A stretch of DNA of 59,079 nt, from the NCBI GenBank assembly GCA_964485625.1, contig CAZAJM010000005.1:1-59079 (forward strand), given 5' to 3'. Origin of the DNA: an uncultured Candidatus Saccharibacteria bacterium (lineage in GTDB: Bacteria > Patescibacteriota > UBA1384 > JAGGWG01 > CAZAJM01). The translations under genes were made by a program, and so were the position numbers. The notes beneath the pieces were generated by a model. That model made no database searches. It was not told the origin of the DNA and saw only the letters and a list, made by a program, of their open reading frames with translations. The number at the start of each line of letters is the position of its first letter. Positions within the stretch are counted from its first letter, which is position 1. Shown in pieces: positions 776 through 30,879 of the stretch.

Positions 776-1063
776 ATGATGGCAAAAATCATACCCCAAT
801 CAGTAAAAACTACGCTCTGGTCGTATAATACTGAAAAAATTGACTTAAAAGAACATAAAAGAGCAATTATTGGTCAAGTTTTAAATTATGGTGATAAACA
901 GGCTACTGACTGGCTTTTTAATACTTACTCAAAAAAGGTGTTAAAAGAAGAGGCTGGGCAGATACCACTAGGGCAATGGGACAAAAAATCATTAGCACTA
1001 TGGAAACTGATCCTAGATATAGATCCTAGGCCAAAATCAGAAAGGGTATTAAATGACAAATAA
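776..1063 (+). CDS. DUF6922-like putative antitoxin
   Basis: LWSY...IIGQVLNYGD...WLFNTY pattern; overlaps the downstream AbiEii gene. Confidence 0.65.
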   Translation: MMAKIIPQSVKTTLWSYNTEKIDLKEHKRAIIGQVLNYGDKQATDWLFNTYSKKVLKEEAGQIPLGQWDKKSLALWKLILDIDPRPKSERVLNDK

Positions 1064-1691
1064 AATCCATTGGAACATTTTAGACAAGAAACGCACAAAG
1101 CACCTCCCAAGGCTGTCAGCTTTTAATGATAGTTTTTACTTAGCAGGAGGCACGGCTTTAGCCTTGCAAATTGGGCATAGAGATAGTGTAGATTTTGATT
1201 TTTTTACAGAAAAATCTTTTGATACAGAAAAACTTGAAAATAAAATAAACAAAGTATTTTCAGGGTACAAGATAAAAATCTCCCAGAAAGAACCCAACAC
1301 TTTATCAGTAACAATCGACAGTGAAGTCAATCTAAGTTTTATAAGCTATAAATACCCTCTTCTAAATAAGCTGATAAAAACAAAGCATCTTAAATTAGCT
1401 TCTATTGTAGATATCGGTGCAATGAAGCTATCTGCTATTATTAGTCGATCAACAATAAAAGATTATGTTGATCTCTACTATATAATTAAAAACATTGGTT
1501 TAGAAAAATTAATTAGTAGTACTGAAATTAAATATCCGGAGATTGATACTAACTTGATATTAAAAAGTCTTGTCTATTTTAAGGATATCAAAAAAGAACC
1601 AATTGATTTTAAAGAAGACAAAGAAGTGAAATTATCTGAAATCAAAACTTTTTTAAAGAAGTCTGTTCAAATTTATTTAAAAAAGCAGTAA
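1053..1691 (+). CDS. AbiEii/AbiGii-family nucleotidyltransferase toxin (type IV TA)
   Basis: YLAGGTALALQIGHRDSVDFDFF nucleotidyltransferase motif; C-terminal KDYVDLY. Confidence 0.85.
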   Translation: MTNKIHWNILDKKRTKHLPRLSAFNDSFYLAGGTALALQIGHRDSVDFDFFTEKSFDTEKLENKINKVFSGYKIKISQKEPNTLSVTIDSEVNLSFISYKYPLLNKLIKTKHLKLASIVDIGAMKLSAIISRSTIKDYVDLYYIIKNIGLEKLISSTEIKYPEIDTNLILKSLVYFKDIKKEPIDFKEDKEVKLSEIKTFLKKSVQIYLKKQ

Positions 1692-1732: not shown

Positions 1733-2206
1733 TTAATTTAGTTTCCTAAACCTGCCAACTCTATTAGGATTGTATCTCAAGATCAGCTCATTTCCATCAA
1801 TCCTATACTCTATCTTGTACTTTGCTCCATCAGATCTATCAGTAATTCTTATCTCACTACCATTAACATCGCGAATATCAGAAACATCTTGGCCGCCCAA
1901 GACATAGTTTTCAACCATAACCCCATCTTCTATCTCAATAGAGCCGATTCCGGCACTGGGGCCCACCCAAGCGCCCTCTAGCTGAACCTCCTCGCTTATT
2001 GCTGGAACATATTGCTCTCTTACCTGAGAGCTAAACTCGCTGTCCTTGTCATGAATACCAAATAAGACAAAGTGTGCACCAATTAGCAAGAATAATCCAA
2101 TTACAATCTTAGTCCAAAGAGGAAATTCTGAATCACTACTGTCATTAATATTTCTGTAATACTTTTTTCGTAAATATGTTTCCAACTGTCTGCTTTTCTC
2201 AGGCAT
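1733..2206 (-). CDS. single-TM protein with lipocalin-like beta domain (paralog A)
   Basis: TM helix, then LEGAW and EYRIDGNELIL; SD GAGGAG upstream. Confidence 0.6.
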   Translation of the reverse strand: MPEKSRQLETYLRKKYYRNINDSSDSEFPLWTKIVIGLFLLIGAHFVLFGIHDKDSEFSSQVREQYVPAISEEVQLEGAWVGPSAGIGSIEIEDGVMVENYVLGGQDVSDIRDVNGSEIRITDRSDGAKYKIEYRIDGNELILRYNPNRVGRFRKLN

Positions 2207-2228
2207 TGGCTTGCTCCTCTGAGGCCTT

Positions 2229-2291
2229 TTTTAGCTACGTGCTTAACTAGAATACTACTACATCTCCCTTATTAAGGCAAATAAAAAGAGA
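2229..2291 (-). repeat. 63-bp direct repeat copy 1 containing a promoter
   Basis: identical to 2805-2867; on minus strand TTGCCT (2275-2280), 17 bp, TAGTAT (2252-2257). Confidence 0.95.
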
Positions 2292-2333
2292 TCAAACAAT
2301 ATATTATTTTAGCCTAGCAATAGATTACTTGAC

Positions 2334-2783
2334 CTAGTTGCCCTTACCTTCAATGAACTTTGAATATAGGAGATGAGTGCCTTCACTGTCAATCAATAGC
2401 AGCCTATCCCCGTCCAAACTGTACTCCATCGCTACCAAATTTCCATTCTCATTTAGTACCAACTGATCTCCATCTATAAAGTAGTCCTGATAAACCCGAT
2501 CAAAGTTACCACTGAATTCAACTCTGCCACTACTATTAAAAGTAATCGTCTTGGGCCCGAGAAAAATACCTCCGTTCTCTAACTTCCAGACTCCTTCCAA
2601 TTTACTCTCTGTGCTTAAGGGAATATTAACTTCCCCATCAGCCATCGCGGAAGTGTAGGTATCAAAACTATGGTTAGCAACTATTAACGACACAAAGATG
2701 AAAGTCAAGCCAATTCCAAGACAGATATTAATATACAATCGCTGCGCTCCTTCTAACCTATCATACCAGACCAGAGGGTTCAT
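2334..2783 (-). CDS. single-TM protein with lipocalin-like beta domain (paralog B)
   Basis: TM helix, then LEGVW and EYSLDGDRLLL; SD GGAGGT upstream. Confidence 0.65.
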   Translation of the reverse strand: MNPLVWYDRLEGAQRLYINICLGIGLTFIFVSLIVANHSFDTYTSAMADGEVNIPLSTESKLEGVWKLENGGIFLGPKTITFNSSGRVEFSGNFDRVYQDYFIDGDQLVLNENGNLVAMEYSLDGDRLLLIDSEGTHLLYSKFIEGKGN

Positions 2784-2804
2784 TCAGAGTACCTCCAACT
2801 CTTC

Positions 2805-2867
2805 TTTTAGCTACGTGCTTAACTAGAATACTACTACATCTCCCTTATTAAGGCAAATAAAAAGAGA
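2805..2867 (-). repeat. 63-bp direct repeat copy 2 containing a promoter
   Basis: identical to 2229-2291; TTGCCT (2851-2856), 17 bp, TAGTAT (2828-2833). Confidence 0.95.
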
Positions 2868-2908
2868 CGAATAAAGTCAATAATATATTTTGGCTAACTA
2901 AATTCGTC
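2866..2908 (-). terminator. long-loop terminator of the 2898-3410 gene
   Basis: GACGAAT/ATTCGTC 7-bp stem, 29-nt loop, followed by TCTTTTT; one arm lies inside the last codons. Confidence 0.55.
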
Positions 2909-3410
2909 CGTCCCTACCATGCTTTGGTGCTTGCGGGCAACCACTTCTTAAGAACATAGCATCCATTCCTGCATATACAAGTGCCTCCTTCGACTCATCA
3001 CTAAAGATCTGATTAACCCTATCATCATCCAAGCCCCAAATCTCGATGAATAGCTTCCTGACCATTCCCCTAAGCCTTGGTGTGCTTAAAATACTCTGCC
3101 AATGCTCTTCCAAATATGGCAACAAACTGCCGACACAGAATCGATGAGCTTCAATTTTCATCGTCATAGGACTCCTGAATTGGTTATGGTCTGATTCCTC
3201 TGGACTAACATCAACATAGCAGAAATATGGGTCCCTAATCTCATCTCCACTCATTCCCAATGCGCCAGCAAGCTCAGCTAGAAAATCAAAGTGAGGACAT
3301 ACTTTTTCTTTACTCATATAGAGAAAATAACCTTTCATACCCCCAACCATATCTTCTGTTTGAACATTAACAAATGTAGTTCCTTCTCTAGGATCAGAGA
3401 CTATACCCAC
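2898..3410 (-). CDS. hypothetical protein
   Basis: 170-aa ORF; SD GGAGGTG 6 nt before GTG. Confidence 0.65.
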   Translation of the reverse strand: MGIVSDPREGTTFVNVQTEDMVGGMKGYFLYMSKEKVCPHFDFLAELAGALGMSGDEIRDPYFCYVDVSPEESDHNQFRSPMTMKIEAHRFCVGSLLPYLEEHWQSILSTPRLRGMVRKLFIEIWGLDDDRVNQIFSDESKEALVYAGMDAMFLRSGCPQAPKHGRDGRI

Positions 3411-5087: not shown

Positions 5088-5852
5088 TTAGTCTCTAACT
5101 ACTCCCAAAGAATTAACCAGCTCAACAGTTTTTCTAACCGAGCCTTCTAAATCGTTTAATACCGTCCGGCGGTCGCTAGGTAACCAATCATTATGAAACA
5201 TCATCCCAACCGGCTGACAATCATCCACCCTGTCCATAGTTGGGTCATAGATACCAGCAATCTTGTCGTAGGTCCTTTGAATAATGCTGATCATATCCCC
5301 GCTATAGCTATCCTCTCTGCCATTAAAACAAATCCCAAAATGGCTAAGCTGGAAACGAAAGACTTCCAAATCAATACCTGGTATATAGGGATCGGGCATT
5401 GTTTGCTGGTGAAGAGCCAGGCCTAAAGTAGACCAAACAATATTTGCCACAGCATCGGCAGCTACAAAGGCATTGATCATTCTCTGCTCATCACCACTAA
5501 ACTCAACAAAATCAATTCGACCACAACTACTGCGAACATTTGAAGCTCTGTGTATATAAACACCCGAACCGGAGCATGCAACCACGCTACCAACCAACTT
5601 AGTCTCAAGATATCTAATCACCAGCGCACTACCATCCAAATCGATATCGGCTAAGACAATCACATAATCATGATGTTTCTGAGTATAGCCAAAAATGGCT
5701 TGTGCTGCCTGATCCATCTGATAAAGACTGCCACAGCCACTACTAACACAGCTATATGTATAATCTCCTTCTGTCTGGCAAAACTCATCAATTGCCAAAC
5801 TGGTGATATCATCAATCCTACCATCATCAACAAGCACCCAGATCATGGGCAT
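5088..5852 (-). CDS. hypothetical protein with N-terminal receiver (REC)-like domain
   Basis: WVLVDD, VIVLADIDLDG and VVACSG match REC beta1/beta3/beta4; SD AAAGGAGG. Confidence 0.55.
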   Translation of the reverse strand: MPMIWVLVDDGRIDDITSLAIDEFCQTEGDYTYSCVSSGCGSLYQMDQAAQAIFGYTQKHHDYVIVLADIDLDGSALVIRYLETKLVGSVVACSGSGVYIHRASNVRSSCGRIDFVEFSGDEQRMINAFVAADAVANIVWSTLGLALHQQTMPDPYIPGIDLEVFRFQLSHFGICFNGREDSYSGDMISIIQRTYDKIAGIYDPTMDRVDDCQPVGMMFHNDWLPSDRRTVLNDLEGSVRKTVELVNSLGVVRD

Positions 5853-5895
5853 GGATTGCCTCCTTTAGTCTTTTTAGGCTACAGTTCCAATACTT

Positions 5896-5931
5896 AACCT
5901 AATATATATTTATAATTTTGGCAAATAAAAA
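5896..5931 (-). promoter_or_regulatory. sigma70 promoter for 5088-5852
   Basis: TTGCCA (5919-5924), 17 bp, TAGGTT (5896-5901); shares the TTTTTATTTGCC core with the 63-bp repeats. Confidence 0.65.
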
Positions 5932-5941
5932 AGAAGGTAGA

Positions 5942-6484
5942 TCAATAGGTTTCTAGCCCTAAGTGGTTAACTGTGGCTTCATATAGCGCCTCTGGTGCTT
6001 CCGGGTTAAATTGAGCTAAATGTAATTGATCACTACCTTCCTGTTCAACTAAATCATCAAAAGACAGCCCATTTCTAATTAAATCTCCTAGAATTGGGTG
6101 GCCAAGCCCATCAAACCTGATTAGTTCAGAAGTATTTCTTTTCTGAGGATTTCTAAGTAAGTGAGCCAAGTCTCTAGAAAGGTTTCTGCTACTTACATCT
6201 ATCGCTGGCAGCAGTATTAATTCGGCTTGGTAATGGAGGTAACAGATACACTGACTCTTGCCTACTCCGATAATATGACCATCAGGCAATACCAGACAAT
6301 CATGGTATTCCATATGGCCAATGGTTCTATCTGAGCTTGAATCCAGGCTAAAAAAGATTGGTCGCCATAGAGTAGTATCTACTAATAGTCTAGCTGAATC
6401 TGTTCTTTCTTCAAGCATACAGATAAGTGAGTAGAGCAAGTAATAACAGTTTTTGGTTATTGCATCCCTTCTGGCTATAGCCAT
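5942..6484 (-). CDS. hypothetical protein
   Basis: 180-aa ORF; own promoter TTGACA (6556-6561), 17 bp, GACAAT (6533-6538). Confidence 0.6.
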   Translation of the reverse strand: MAIARRDAITKNCYYLLYSLICMLEERTDSARLLVDTTLWRPIFFSLDSSSDRTIGHMEYHDCLVLPDGHIIGVGKSQCICYLHYQAELILLPAIDVSSRNLSRDLAHLLRNPQKRNTSELIRFDGLGHPILGDLIRNGLSFDDLVEQEGSDQLHLAQFNPEAPEALYEATVNHLGLETY

Positions 6485-10084: not shown

Positions 10085-10149
10085 AGAATTTAAAATATTT
10101 AATTTAATTTTTGTTTACATCCTGTACAGCTTAACAAGAAAATGGCTTT

Positions 10150-10205
10150 TTGTAAAGAAAAAAGACGCTAATAACAGTAGAAATTAATACTACCTAACTA
10201 GCGAC
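10150..10205 (-). repeat. 56-bp terminator/-35 block A, copy 1
   Basis: 55/56 identical to 10781-10836; imperfect hairpin plus T6 running into TTTACA. Confidence 0.9.
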
Positions 10206-10719
10206 TGAACTTCATGCTCTCTATCAAGGTCCCTAACTGATCTTCACTGTATTTAACAGCGCCATAATACATATCATCAATAGCATCTTGTTGACGCTCT
10301 AAACAATAATTGATCTCACTGACTCTATCTGAGGTATAGACTATAACTCTAATCATAGGTCCAAAATCTCCAGTAACCTTAACTGCCTGAAACTGGTAGC
10401 AAGACCCAGAGTTAGGATAGAATACCTTATAGGCTTTAACAACCTCGCCTTCATTGGTCTTCCAACCTTCAGATTCATGAACAAATATCTCCGGACAATT
10501 AGCACGTATCCACTCTAAGGAAGCAATATCAAGATTATCTACTTCACCAATACCAACTCGGTAATAATATCTCTTCATGCCACGTATAATCATTATTACT
10601 CCAAATAATGCTAAAAACCCAAAAATGATAAGGTCATGAGTAGCCAACCAAACAAAGGCCAAAATAACTGACACTAGAATTAACTGAATATACAAGTACC
10701 TCCATGCCCTTGGGAACAT
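10198..10719 (-). CDS. 2-TM hypothetical protein (cassette paralog 1)
   Basis: start moved to ATG 10719 (SD GGGAGG 6 nt upstream); remote similarity to 10825-11331 (NL..LEWI..N.P.I, YKVFY). Confidence 0.7.
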   Translation of the reverse strand: MFPRAWRYLYIQLILVSVILAFVWLATHDLIIFGFLALFGVIMIIRGMKRYYYRVGIGEVDNLDIASLEWIRANCPEIFVHESEGWKTNEGEVVKAYKVFYPNSGSCYQFQAVKVTGDFGPMIRVIVYTSDRVSEINYCLERQQDAIDDMYYGAVKYSEDQLGTLIESMKFSR

Positions 10720-10729
10720 ATTTTTCCTC

Positions 10730-10794
10730 CCGTACTTCAAAGATCGATGCTGAATAAGATACTACACTAAATATTAGTTATTGTAAAGAAAAAA
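10730..10794 (-). repeat. 65-bp promoter/5'UTR block B, copy 1
   Basis: 64/65 identical to 11345-11409; TTTACA (10782-10787), 17 bp, TAGTAT (10759-10764). Confidence 0.9.
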
Positions 10795-10836
10795 GACGCT
10801 AATAACAGTAGAAATTTATACTACCTAACTAGCGAC
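10781..10836 (-). repeat. 56-bp terminator/-35 block A, copy 2
   Basis: 55/56 identical to 10150-10205; overlaps block B by the 14-bp core TTGTAAAGAAAAAA. Confidence 0.9.
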
Positions 10837-11331
10837 CAGTTGGCGTGCTTTTTCAAGATTAAGCCTACTTAGCTTAATAGCACTTTTATGAGCTGCAGCT
10901 AACGCTTTTCTTCTGTCTTCAATTGGATATCGCTCTTGATGGATATTACCCTCATCGTCGACCACATCAACAGTGATCTCATCTTTGCTTGGATTAAACT
11001 TTGCTTCAACGACTCGGAAATGGTCCTCGAAATACACTCTATACCTAGTTGTCAGGTTATCACAAAAAAGTTTATCGGCTAGTATCCCTGGCCTATTTTC
11101 TATTAGCCACTCAATATCTTCGGAAGACAAATTTAGTGTATCTTCTCTAATAGTTCTAAAATTTCGATCCAAGATTATCAACAGGGTGAGTATCAACGGA
11201 ATAAATATAATTATCACAATGGATAAACATAAATCACCAATACCGAAATCTAATCGAATTTTCAAAACAAAAAGTATCAACATACAAGTTGCTATCAATA
11301 TCACAAAGAGCTTTCTTTGGCTTGGCAACAT
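10825..11331 (-). CDS. 2-TM hypothetical protein (cassette paralog 2)
   Basis: likely ATG at 11331 (alternatives 11340, or TTG 11355); remote paralog of 10198-10719. Confidence 0.7.
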   Translation of the reverse strand: MLPSQRKLFVILIATCMLILFVLKIRLDFGIGDLCLSIVIIIFIPLILTLLIILDRNFRTIREDTLNLSSEDIEWLIENRPGILADKLFCDNLTTRYRVYFEDHFRVVEAKFNPSKDEITVDVVDDEGNIHQERYPIEDRRKALAAAHKSAIKLSRLNLEKARQLVAS

Positions 11332-11344
11332 GCTCCTCATCCTT

Positions 11345-11409
11345 CCGTACTTCAAAGATCGATGCTGAATAAGATACTACATTAAATATTAGTTATTGTA
11401 AAGAAAAAA
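11345..11409 (-). repeat. 65-bp promoter/5'UTR block B, copy 2
   Basis: 64/65 identical to 10730-10794; TTTACA (11397-11402), 17 bp, TAGTAT (11374-11379). Confidence 0.9.
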
Positions 11410-11472
11410 AGCTTCAATAAAGGTGTAAAAAAGTGCGGATCTAGTAACTGACCTTAAATTAAAGCTTGATAG

Positions 11473-11631
11473 TTAGTGCTCGTTATACCATTTCTGATTG
11501 TTATGACGACTATGAGGTAGCTTTCTTGGAGAGGTGCTCCCACATGTTACAATCTGCTCACAATAACTCTTAAATGATATACGATTAGTCTCCCCCTGCT
11601 TTCTGCTTCTTTCTTCTGTTGCCAACTTCAT
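11473..11631 (-). CDS. putative small protein of 50-52 aa (not in ORF track)
   Basis: MKLATEERSRKQGETNRISFKSYCEQIVTCGSTSPRKLPHSRHNNQKWYNEH; GGAGG 7 nt before in-frame TTG 11625; upstream TGaTATAAT (11667-11675); downstream hairpin 11410-11466 plus T-tract. Confidence 0.35.
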   Translation of the reverse strand: MKLATEERSRKQGETNRISFKSYCEQIVTCGSTSPRKLPHSRHNNQKWYNEH

Positions 11632-11814
11632 TCCTCCCTCTGCTGCCTTCCTAACGGCTTGAATATATTATATCAAACATTTATTAAGCCAGACTGTGGA
11701 TAGCTTTGAATAGTAGTAGTTTAAATTAAAAAAAGACAGTAAATATATACTAAAGATTAGTTTATGTAAAGAAAAAATAGCTGGTTTAACCTGTCTTCAG
11801 CTATTTAATCGATA

Positions 11815-29803: not shown

Positions 29804-30879
29804 AGTATAAATTGTACAATATCTCGGTAAGTAATCAATATGATCAGAAGAATTAGTAGAGCAAAACCGATAAATTGCAAGACACCGACCACCTCTTCCT
29901 TGGCCTTCTTGCCCCTAATTTTCTCAAAAGCCAAAATTACTAGCTGACCACCATCCAGAGCTGGAATAGGGATTAAATTAATCACTGCTAGATTCATGGA
30001 GAGAAAACCAACAAGCTTTAATATCGGACCAATACCAAGCTTAACTATCTCACTGGTTAGCACAAATATTCCGACCGGACCGACCACTCCCTCTTGAACA
30101 GTCTGCTCTACAAGAAGCTTAGAAATTATTTGATAGAGGGTAACAAAGATTAAGCCGACTATCCGAACCGATTCTTCCAGAGCAATTAGAGGCACCTGAT
30201 AGAAAGCATAGTCCATCTGGCCATAACCCTGGCCAATCACCGCTCCGATCTTTCCCTCATCAGTTATATTAACCTCTTTCTCTACCAACTGGTTATCCTG
30301 ACTACTGTCCTTAAAAATAATCGTACTCAACTTACCCGGGTTCTCTTTGGTGTAGTTAATCAAATCTTCAACTTTACCAATCTGTTGGTTATCAACTCTG
30401 GTGATAAGATCTCCCTGCTCTAGACCAACCTGCTCAGCCGGACTGCCTGCTTGAGACTCAATCACAATCGTTTGATAAGCAATCTTCTCTTCAGGTAGAT
30501 AACGAGCCGGATCGGTTACGGTCGGGGGGTTGCCTAAAGAGAAATAGATAGCAAATATCAAAAAACCAAAAAGAAAATTCATTAATACCCCGGCAAAGAC
30601 TACCTTAGCTCTCTGCCAGACTGATCGGGAGGCAAAAGAATCCTCATCCTCTTCATGTCCGCCACCTTCACCATAGAGACTAACATAACCTCCAAGAGGA
30701 ATTAGGTTAAGAGAGTACTTGGTCTCACCATATTTCTTACTAAATACCCTAGGCGGGAAACCTATACCAAACTCTTCCACCTTTATTCCTTGGATTTTGG
30801 CAAATAAAAAATGCCCCAACTCATGAACAAAGACCAATACTCCCAAAGTGAGAGCGAAAACTATAATTGTTAAAACCAT
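29800..30879 (-). CDS. rseP: RIP metalloprotease RseP
   Basis: HELGH, PDZ domain, NLIPIPALDGG. Confidence 0.93.
   Translation of the reverse strand: MVLTIIVFALTLGVLVFVHELGHFLFAKIQGIKVEEFGIGFPPRVFSKKYGETKYSLNLIPLGGYVSLYGEGGGHEEDEDSFASRSVWQRAKVVFAGVLMNFLFGFLIFAIYFSLGNPPTVTDPARYLPEEKIAYQTIVIESQAGSPAEQVGLEQGDLITRVDNQQIGKVEDLINYTKENPGKLSTIIFKDSSQDNQLVEKEVNITDEGKIGAVIGQGYGQMDYAFYQVPLIALEESVRIVGLIFVTLYQIISKLLVEQTVQEGVVGPVGIFVLTSEIVKLGIGPILKLVGFLSMNLAVINLIPIPALDGGQLVILAFEKIRGKKAKEEVVGVLQFIGFALLILLIILITYRDIVQFIL

Follow-up and report, generated by a model that had tools for sequence, protein, structure and literature searches.

How two adjacent genes of unlike sequence come to stand behind exactly the same stretch of control DNA is the question raised by a 59,079-nt stretch (here the window; NCBI GenBank assembly GCA_964485625.1, contig CAZAJM010000005.1) from an uncultured Candidatus Saccharibacteria bacterium. 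The window is contig C5 of a metagenome-assembled genome (724 kb in 31 contigs, 39% GC, 95.7% complete), for which no relative of the same family was found among the GTDB species genomes, and the locus lies on this chromosomal contig beside tig, dinB-like and glycolysis genes. A 63-nt block (2229-2291 and 2805-2867) stands upstream of each of two adjacent open reading frames (ORFs), gene A (1733-2206) and gene B (2334-2783). Block and genes are on the minus strand, and coordinates are window positions unless another sequence is named. The original prediction had taken the block for a recombination handle through which variable surface-protein genes are swapped. The handle is upheld by three observations described below: the block is more alike within the genome than between orthologous loci, its edges are sharp, and the window differs from a relative by exactly one repeat unit. 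The swapping of one gene for another found no counterpart, as only presence or absence of B was seen at the locus. The account that we favor, at somewhat better than even confidence, is that homologous recombination of the RecA type at a shared control module copied the identical blocks onto each other.

Both copies of the block read TCTCTTTTTATTTGCCTTAATAAGGGAGATGTAGTAGTATTCTAGTTAAGCACGTAGCTAAAA (from 2291 to 2229 and from 2867 to 2805) and, as had been claimed, agree at 63 of 63 positions. They are direct repeats 576 bp apart, and the whole 724-kb assembly holds no others (BLAST, E 1e-30). Copy 1 (2805-2867), before gene B, contains a T-tract, a -35-like TTGCCT (2856 to 2851), a -10-like TAGTAT (2833 to 2828) and a conserved leader sequence, TTAAGCACGTAGCTAAAA (2822 to 2805); copy 2 (2229-2291), before gene A, has the same elements at 2280 to 2275, 2257 to 2252 and 2246 to 2229. 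The T-tract lies upstream of the promoter-like site, and a Shine-Dalgarno (SD) sequence and ATG follow 22-23 nt past the block. The repeat can be widened to 76 nt at 92% identity (2216-2291 compared with 2792-2867), the added matches being mostly the SD sequence GAGG. A 42-nt spacer (2292-2333) separates the stop codon of B from copy 2; copy 1, the leader, gene B and this spacer together make up a 576-bp unit (2292-2867 or, equivalently, 2229-2804).

The repeat is also evident in independent Logan contigs, which match the window exactly and derive from two runs and a different assembler. Two of these contigs (L016 from run SRR15425350 and L017 from SRR15425351) end at 2838, 30 nt inside copy 1, and another (L004, also from SRR15425350) begins at 2258, 30 nt before the end of copy 2. 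A length of 30 nt is k-1 at k=31, as expected where a repeat can be entered in two ways and left in two ways. Since the contigs break k-1 inside the block on both sides, a second sequence, the spacer after B, joins the block in the reads, and the repeat is not the product of this assembly alone. Strain variants of the locus (90%-cluster mates) are not on record.

A related locus was found in one lineage, on the Joint Genome Institute (JGI) contigs L005 and L006, which is distant from the window (53% amino acid identity for A and 81% for p493). There the order is p496 (81% identical to p493), a homolog of p170 (42%), one block, A´ (53% identical to A) and p125 (42% identical to p126). Synteny is thus not fixed across relatives, and fixed synteny was what would have spoken against the original prediction: L005/L006 have a single block, no gene B and no toxin-antitoxin pair, and the 576-bp unit is missing by alignment, by tblastn and among the L005 ORFs. 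Comparing observed alignment scores with those of 2000 shuffles, we found the upstream flank of copy 1 to be orthologous to the flank of the L005 block (0/2000); the 3´ flank of A is likewise orthologous to its counterpart at A´ (0/2000). The segment that comprises the upstream flank and gene p170 (2868-3410, the gene itself at 2898-3410, minus strand) corresponds to L005 2062-2580, with 42% amino acid identity. Given orthologous flanks on both sides and a spacer that matches nothing, the two genomes differ by exactly one repeat-bounded unit of 576 bp, gene B plus one block.

The same comparison bears on the age of the identity. The L005 block matches the block of the window at 45 of 63 positions (71%), with the 18 changes found all through the promoter spacer, whereas the two paralogous blocks are 100% alike within the genome; at the orthologous rate the chance of a 63/63 match would be 0.71^63, or about 4e-10. 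As the module tolerates 18 changes between lineages, the full identity within the genome is not due to constraint, and it reflects copying that postdates the separation of the two lineages. The divergence of the A and B coding sequences is far older, or B is unrelated by descent at this site.

Similarity falls to chance right outside the block on both sides. The 42-nt spacer gave no significant match to any sequence compared, the upstream flank of copy 1, the 3´ flank of A and L005 among them (149, 1264, 437 and 1999 of 2000 shuffles). Here the 149 shuffles (p about 0.07) belong to the spacer against the upstream flank of copy 1 and the 437 (p about 0.22) to the comparison of 3´ flanks. For the downstream leaders together with the first codons of A and B, 658/2000 shuffles reached the observed score (p about 0.33). 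An older, larger duplication extending beyond the block was considered and set aside, as no flank, leader or 3´ comparison was significant.

In L005 itself, the ortholog of p170 (2062-2580) is split into two ORFs of 105 and 65 aa and could be a pseudogene or the result of a sequencing error. A decayed inverted copy of ~90 nt of the 3´ part of p496 (L005 1615-1699 and 3825-3907, 84-89% complementary, with stop codons) lies downstream of p125, so that the p170-A-p125 segment of L005 is flanked by inverted repeats; the genome of the window has no such inverted copy of p496. For the relatives of p493 at ~50% identity (L007 and L008), the downstream genes are unrelated to those of the window.

Genes A (157 aa) and B (149 aa) each encode a basic N-terminus, a single hydrophobic helix that would serve as a membrane anchor and a beta-rich domain of ~90 residues, for A a predicted eight-strand beta domain. 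The two proteins are 25% identical over 122 aa (BLASTP E 3e-4). As had been pointed out, what they share is limited to short motifs, LEGAW/LEGVW and IEYRIDGNELIL/MEYSLDGDRLLL, and the nucleotide identity of the genes is 49%, compared with 48.7% when B is shuffled. A phmmer search with A against the 1409 ORFs of the genome returned B as the sole non-self match (E 0.008), hhalign gave the A-B pair a probability of 21%, and the A profile did not recover B at E 0.01. Taken together, A and B are probably remote paralogs at best.

Beyond the pair, A has one homolog, P0003 (53% identity), and an A profile search of 100 relatives gave nothing. B is an orphan with no match in L005 and no homologs among 5.8 billion clusters or 1.84 billion representatives. 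For B the Pfam family DUF5640 scored 22.5 bits (E 1e-4), under its gathering cut-off of 28.5 bits, while A had no Pfam match above a family cut-off and only a sub-threshold match to Hexapep. HMMER matches of B in WD40, calycin and cadherin proteins were dismissed as beta-repeat noise. The structural model of A was moderate, with a predicted local distance difference test (pLDDT) score of 70-84 for the C-terminal eight-strand beta domain; it had no PDB match at E <= 0.001, and its list was headed by small beta-barrels, lipocalin and fatty acid-binding protein (FABP). The model of B was poor (pLDDT 51). Neither N-terminus carries a lipobox cysteine. The N-terminal anchor and the low-confidence beta-barrel model suggest that A and B may be membrane-anchored, outward-facing small beta proteins. 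The earlier description of these genes as encoding variable surface proteins would draw only on that anchor and that model. A foreign origin of B was also considered on the basis of composition, which proved uninformative (GC 0.41 and third-position GC 0.45, within about 1 standard deviation of the genome). We also noted a GC-rich palindrome inside gene A (TCTTGGCCGCCCAAGA, 1887-1902), unique in the genome; the corresponding codons of the L005 ortholog are not palindromic.

A third, diverged version of the module was found at 5853-5942 on the minus strand, before p254 (5088-5852), an unrelated orphan ORF (ORFan). It is made up of TTTTTATTTGCC, 37 nt, GTAGCCTAAAA, 20 nt and ATG, with the T-tract, TTGCC, the 37 nt to GTAGC(C)TAAAA and the distance to the start codon all as in the identical copies. 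The spacing of 37 nt from TTGC and one further base to GTAGC is common to A, B, p254 and A´ of L005, and the elements conserved both in L005 and before p254 are TTTTTATTTGC and GTAGC(C)TAAAA at that fixed spacing. The 12-mer TTTTTATTTGCC occurs four times in the genome (0.23 expected), three times in these modules and once at 30799. The leader motif has three matches (0.1 expected), in each case with a start codon of this ORFan island 20-23 nt further on. An nhmmer model built from four sequences found the p254 copy at E 1.5e-16, a value that is not independent, as that copy is one of the four rows of the model. The block thus appears to belong to a small local promoter/leader family with three members in the ORFan island. 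As the p254 copy keeps the 37-nt spacing and the distance to ATG, the module would be functional, and this copy shows what it looks like when it drifts and is not homogenized. The SD-proximal part of the p254 copy (AAAAAGACTAAAGGAGG) is closer to the A´ leader of L005 than the A leader of the window is.

Members beyond the three local copies were not found by BLAST of the assembly or with the four-sequence nhmmer model, nor were further blocks detected in 60 relatives (BLASTN) or when the GTDB species genomes and IMG/VR were scanned with degenerate patterns, collections from which records of this genome or of close relatives may be missing. A dispersed family was therefore rejected: in 724 kb there are two identical copies and one diverged copy.

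The original prediction had seen a full promoter in the block. The site TTGCCT-17-TAGTAT is present in both copies, that of copy 1 lying 576 nt from that of copy 2, but it agrees with the sigma-70 consensus at only 8/12 positions, below the threshold of the scanner, and the L005 version, judged by eye, is weaker still (6/12). The hexamers most enriched in upstream regions of this genome are TATAAT (6.5x) and TTGACA (5.3x). A weak sigma-70-type promoter is thus a plausible reading of the block. A closer match, TTGACA-18-TATATT (11/12), lies at 2363-2392 on the minus strand, within the last codons of B and ~155 nt upstream of the A start codon; A might be transcribed from this site as well, which would place copy 2 of the block in the A 5´ UTR (untranslated region). 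Folding of both strands and of the full leaders gave no stem-loop better than those of shuffled sequences (z -0.96 to +1.38), and one hairpin within the block is not kept in L005. The scanner listed no terminator at the block, no conserved palindrome or structured repeat was found there, and an RNA element was discarded as a candidate, since the one Rfam match at E <= 1 was a chance resemblance to a small nucleolar RNA elsewhere.

Two further differences of similar kind lie close by. An AbiEii/DUF6922 toxin-antitoxin (TA) pair (Pfam; 776-1691, plus strand, within a segment at 725-1696) is absent from L005. At either end of the pair is a copy of a 23-nt direct repeat, the two being identical at 20/23 positions (1674-1696 and 725-747; 0/2000 shuffles). 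The repeat consists of the 3´ arm and T-tract of the A terminator and has one copy in L005. The GC content of the pair is 0.29/0.34, compared with 0.40 +/- 0.04 for the genome. A second cluster, at the tig promoter (10138-11778, minus strand), holds two genes for two-helix transmembrane proteins (10198-10719 and 10825-11340) that have no detectable similarity to each other, with repeated blocks around each gene. Each gene stands behind a promoter/leader block identical at 68/70 positions and is followed by a terminator/-35 block identical at 57/59; the junction blocks are 97% identical, with a core, TTTTTCTTTACA, that occurs four times, and the cluster was assembled through without trouble. 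In contig L019 the adjoining nucleotidyltransferase is 88% identical in amino acids and the slot holds different genes (20% identity to one of those in the window), whose two promoters are unlike each other and have in common only a T-tract and TTTACAA. Gene-sized differences bounded by repeats are the rule in this 12-kb ORFan stretch.

According to the recombination account that we favor, the block would act as a control module that joins the T-tract to a weak promoter of the sigma-70 type and to the opening ~18 nt of the mRNA leader. Two copies of this module, now identical, would have been copied onto each other recently via homologous recombination. This could have happened in either of two ways, between which we are about evenly divided. 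A and B could be an old tandem pair whose promoters were homogenized by non-allelic gene conversion, with B later looped out in the L005 lineage; the resemblance between A and B speaks for this version, as do traces of what may be older similarity (p about 0.07) directly upstream of the block. Alternatively, a crossover at the block, of the Campbell type or unequal, could have inserted the 576-bp leader-B-spacer-block segment in the lineage of the window, for which the sharp edges, the adjoining TA insertion with its foreign GC and the cassette-like second cluster can be cited. With either version, two direct copies would make gene B a cassette that can loop out and loop in, and the state of the relative, with one block and no B, would be the other side of a single recombination step. 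The block marks a recombination-bounded cassette and is neither a dispersed mobile element nor a member of the phage cassettes discussed below. RecA is encoded on contig C1 (481 bits); the only tyrosine recombinase of the genome is on contig C7, and there is no serine recombinase. Near the locus, no recombinase, transposase or integrase was found. Both the direction of the event (gain or loss) and any role in varying exposed proteins are matters that we infer.

Several points weigh against recombination at the block. A length of 63 nt is close to the minimum for efficient RecA recombination (the minimal efficient processing segment, MEPS, of E. coli), and once the blocks had drifted apart to ~70%, conversion between them would work very poorly. 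The A-B homology is marginal, which leaves the old tandem pair insecure as judged from these sequences, and for the insertion route B, as an orphan, points to no donor. The promoter match that would make the block a control module appears weak (8/12, and 6/12 in L005). With only one related lineage, itself distant, the indel cannot be polarized or dated.

Other explanations of the two blocks were weighed against the same observations. B could have arrived "naked", as leader, gene and spacer, just downstream of the A promoter, with an insertion or repair process (staggered nicks or template switching) duplicating a 63-nt target; such a duplication would give B a promoter and leave A its own. 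The sharp repeat edges with chance-level similarity outside are as expected from this course of events, as is the adjoining TA pair of foreign-looking GC with its 23-nt target duplication. We nevertheless think it unlikely, given that lengths of 23 and 63 nt do not fit one enzyme, that no transposase or integrase was found nearby, that the stretch duplicated is itself a functional module found before p254 as well and that B has a weak likeness to A in sequence and a clear one in architecture, which is unexpected of a random import. A dedicated cassette system, similar to integrons or to the phage cassettes and provided with a helper protein, could move ORFan cassettes via circles. Such a system would suit a relative that is without exactly one unit and the cassette-like conserved ends in the second cluster, and it has a precedent in T4-type phages, where mini-circles were demonstrated (PMC2839356). 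It is, however, very improbable here: there are only two identical copies and one diverged copy, with none in the rest of the genome, the 60 relatives, the GTDB genomes or IMG/VR; the folds are no better than chance and the hairpin is not kept in L005; and there is no recombinase nearby.

If every position were needed by a regulator or by polymerase, purifying selection alone could have kept two old promoters identical, and parts of the block are indeed conserved in L005 and before p254 at the fixed 37-nt spacing, with a motif at constant distance from three start codons. The L005 ortholog differs at 18/63 positions, however, and the p254 copy at more, so that constraint does not explain full identity; the spacer is mostly free to vary, and the coding DNA of the two genes is at random-level similarity. 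The L005 comparison largely refutes selection as the sole cause, and we give it very little weight. The repeat might also be an assembly artefact in which strain variants, one with block and A and the other with block and B, were chained through the common block, this being a genome assembled from a metagenome in 31 contigs. This too is scarcely probable, as the Logan contigs from two runs and another assembler break at k-1 on both sides of the repeat, the junction of spacer to block exists only if the block follows B, and the parallel structure at 10-12 kb was assembled through.

The original prediction had likened the locus to the promoter-early stem-loop (PeSL) regulatory cassettes of T4-type phages (Arbiol et al., 2010, PMC2839356; Comeau et al., 2014, PMC4122927), and the layout of an ORFan between modules bears this out. 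As with PeSLs, a short module lies between ORFans of a variable region, with AT-rich DNA, a putative promoter of the sigma-70 kind (17-nt spacing), an SD sequence and a start codon, and the absence of B and one block from L005/L006, with orthologous flanks on both sides, is exactly the layout of RB49 ORF192 and phi1, in which an ORFan between two modules corresponds to one module and no ORFan in the relative (PMC2839356). The step that we propose, a crossover between direct copies that is reversible via a circle, would be similar as well. The likeness does not extend to the stem-loop or to a multi-copy family: there are two identical copies and one diverged copy here and dozens of PeSLs in hyperplastic regions, no stem-loop or terminator is supported at the block, and the promoter match is weak. 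The present locus is on a cellular chromosome and has no phage match in IMG/VR, and the recombinogenic replication machinery of a phage is absent here, leaving RecA only. Membership in the PeSL class fails for lack of a stem-loop, a multi-copy family and a phage.

Bacterial systems offer other parallels. In Borrelia burgdorferi, a near-identical upstream homology box (UHB) is said to precede diverged paralogs for exposed proteins (the ospE/ospF/erp genes, in accounts attributed to Marconi et al. in 1996 and Sung et al. in 1998 and 2000), and recombination at the UHB has reportedly been proposed to generate variants. These papers stand in the reference list of PMC10016077. In the window, likewise, a box that is 63/63 identical precedes genes whose products are 25% identical, with exposure suggested by the N-terminal anchor. 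The UHB genes reportedly occur in many copies, carried by cp32 prophage plasmids, and their products are lipoproteins with a common leader peptide, whereas the pair described here is chromosomal and tandem, has no lipobox and loses its identity before the start codon. Short non-coding segments of tandem paralogs can also undergo concerted evolution through non-allelic gene conversion, with which the 100% identity within the genome against 71% between orthologs, a tract bounded by diverged DNA and the presence of RecA are all consistent. The second cluster is similar in this respect, with 97% identity within the window and two unlike promoters in L019. The usual cases, however, homogenize coding sequence with or without flanks, and here the tract is 63 nt of control sequence only. 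Single-gene units stacked by a promoter also recall integrons (attC/IntI), the tig-promoter cluster being the most alike. Unlike integrons, the locus has no IntI beside the array (the sole tyrosine recombinase being on C7) and no attC-like structured site, and each unit has its own promoter, the repeat being that promoter and not a recombination site. The process is ordinary and familiar; what is new is an instance from an uncultivated lineage of the Candidate Phyla Radiation (CPR).

CPR bacteria (Patescibacteria) have small genomes with many fast-changing orphan genes for envelope proteins, the turnover of which is poorly documented. The locus provides a clean, small example of a gene-sized difference whose end points fall at two copies of a control module, and because the end points are module copies, the sequence itself reveals the mechanism, namely crossover or conversion where promoters share a short homology. 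As far as the evidence goes, this is a single case of an ordinary process, involving two proteins with no assigned function. If the pattern holds in more genomes of the lineage, T4-type modular shuffling would also shape cellular ORFan islands, and identical promoters before unlike genes would become a rule for spotting recently exchanged genes. More speculatively, and at odds that we consider rather long, ORFan islands may evolve as T4-type hyperplastic regions do, with single-gene cassettes bounded by local terminator, promoter and leader modules looping out as circles and re-entering at similar modules, in the same cell or, if DNA is taken up, in another one. B, the TA pair and the tig-promoter stack would then be products of one process, and orphan membrane-protein genes, even TA pairs, could be gained, lost and stacked without disturbing the expression of their neighbors.

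Finally, other short intergenic direct repeats with 95-100% identity (119, 52 and 86 nt) were observed elsewhere in the assembly, at 16142-16426 of contig C8, 51085-51318 of contig C3 and 1508-1815 of contig C1.

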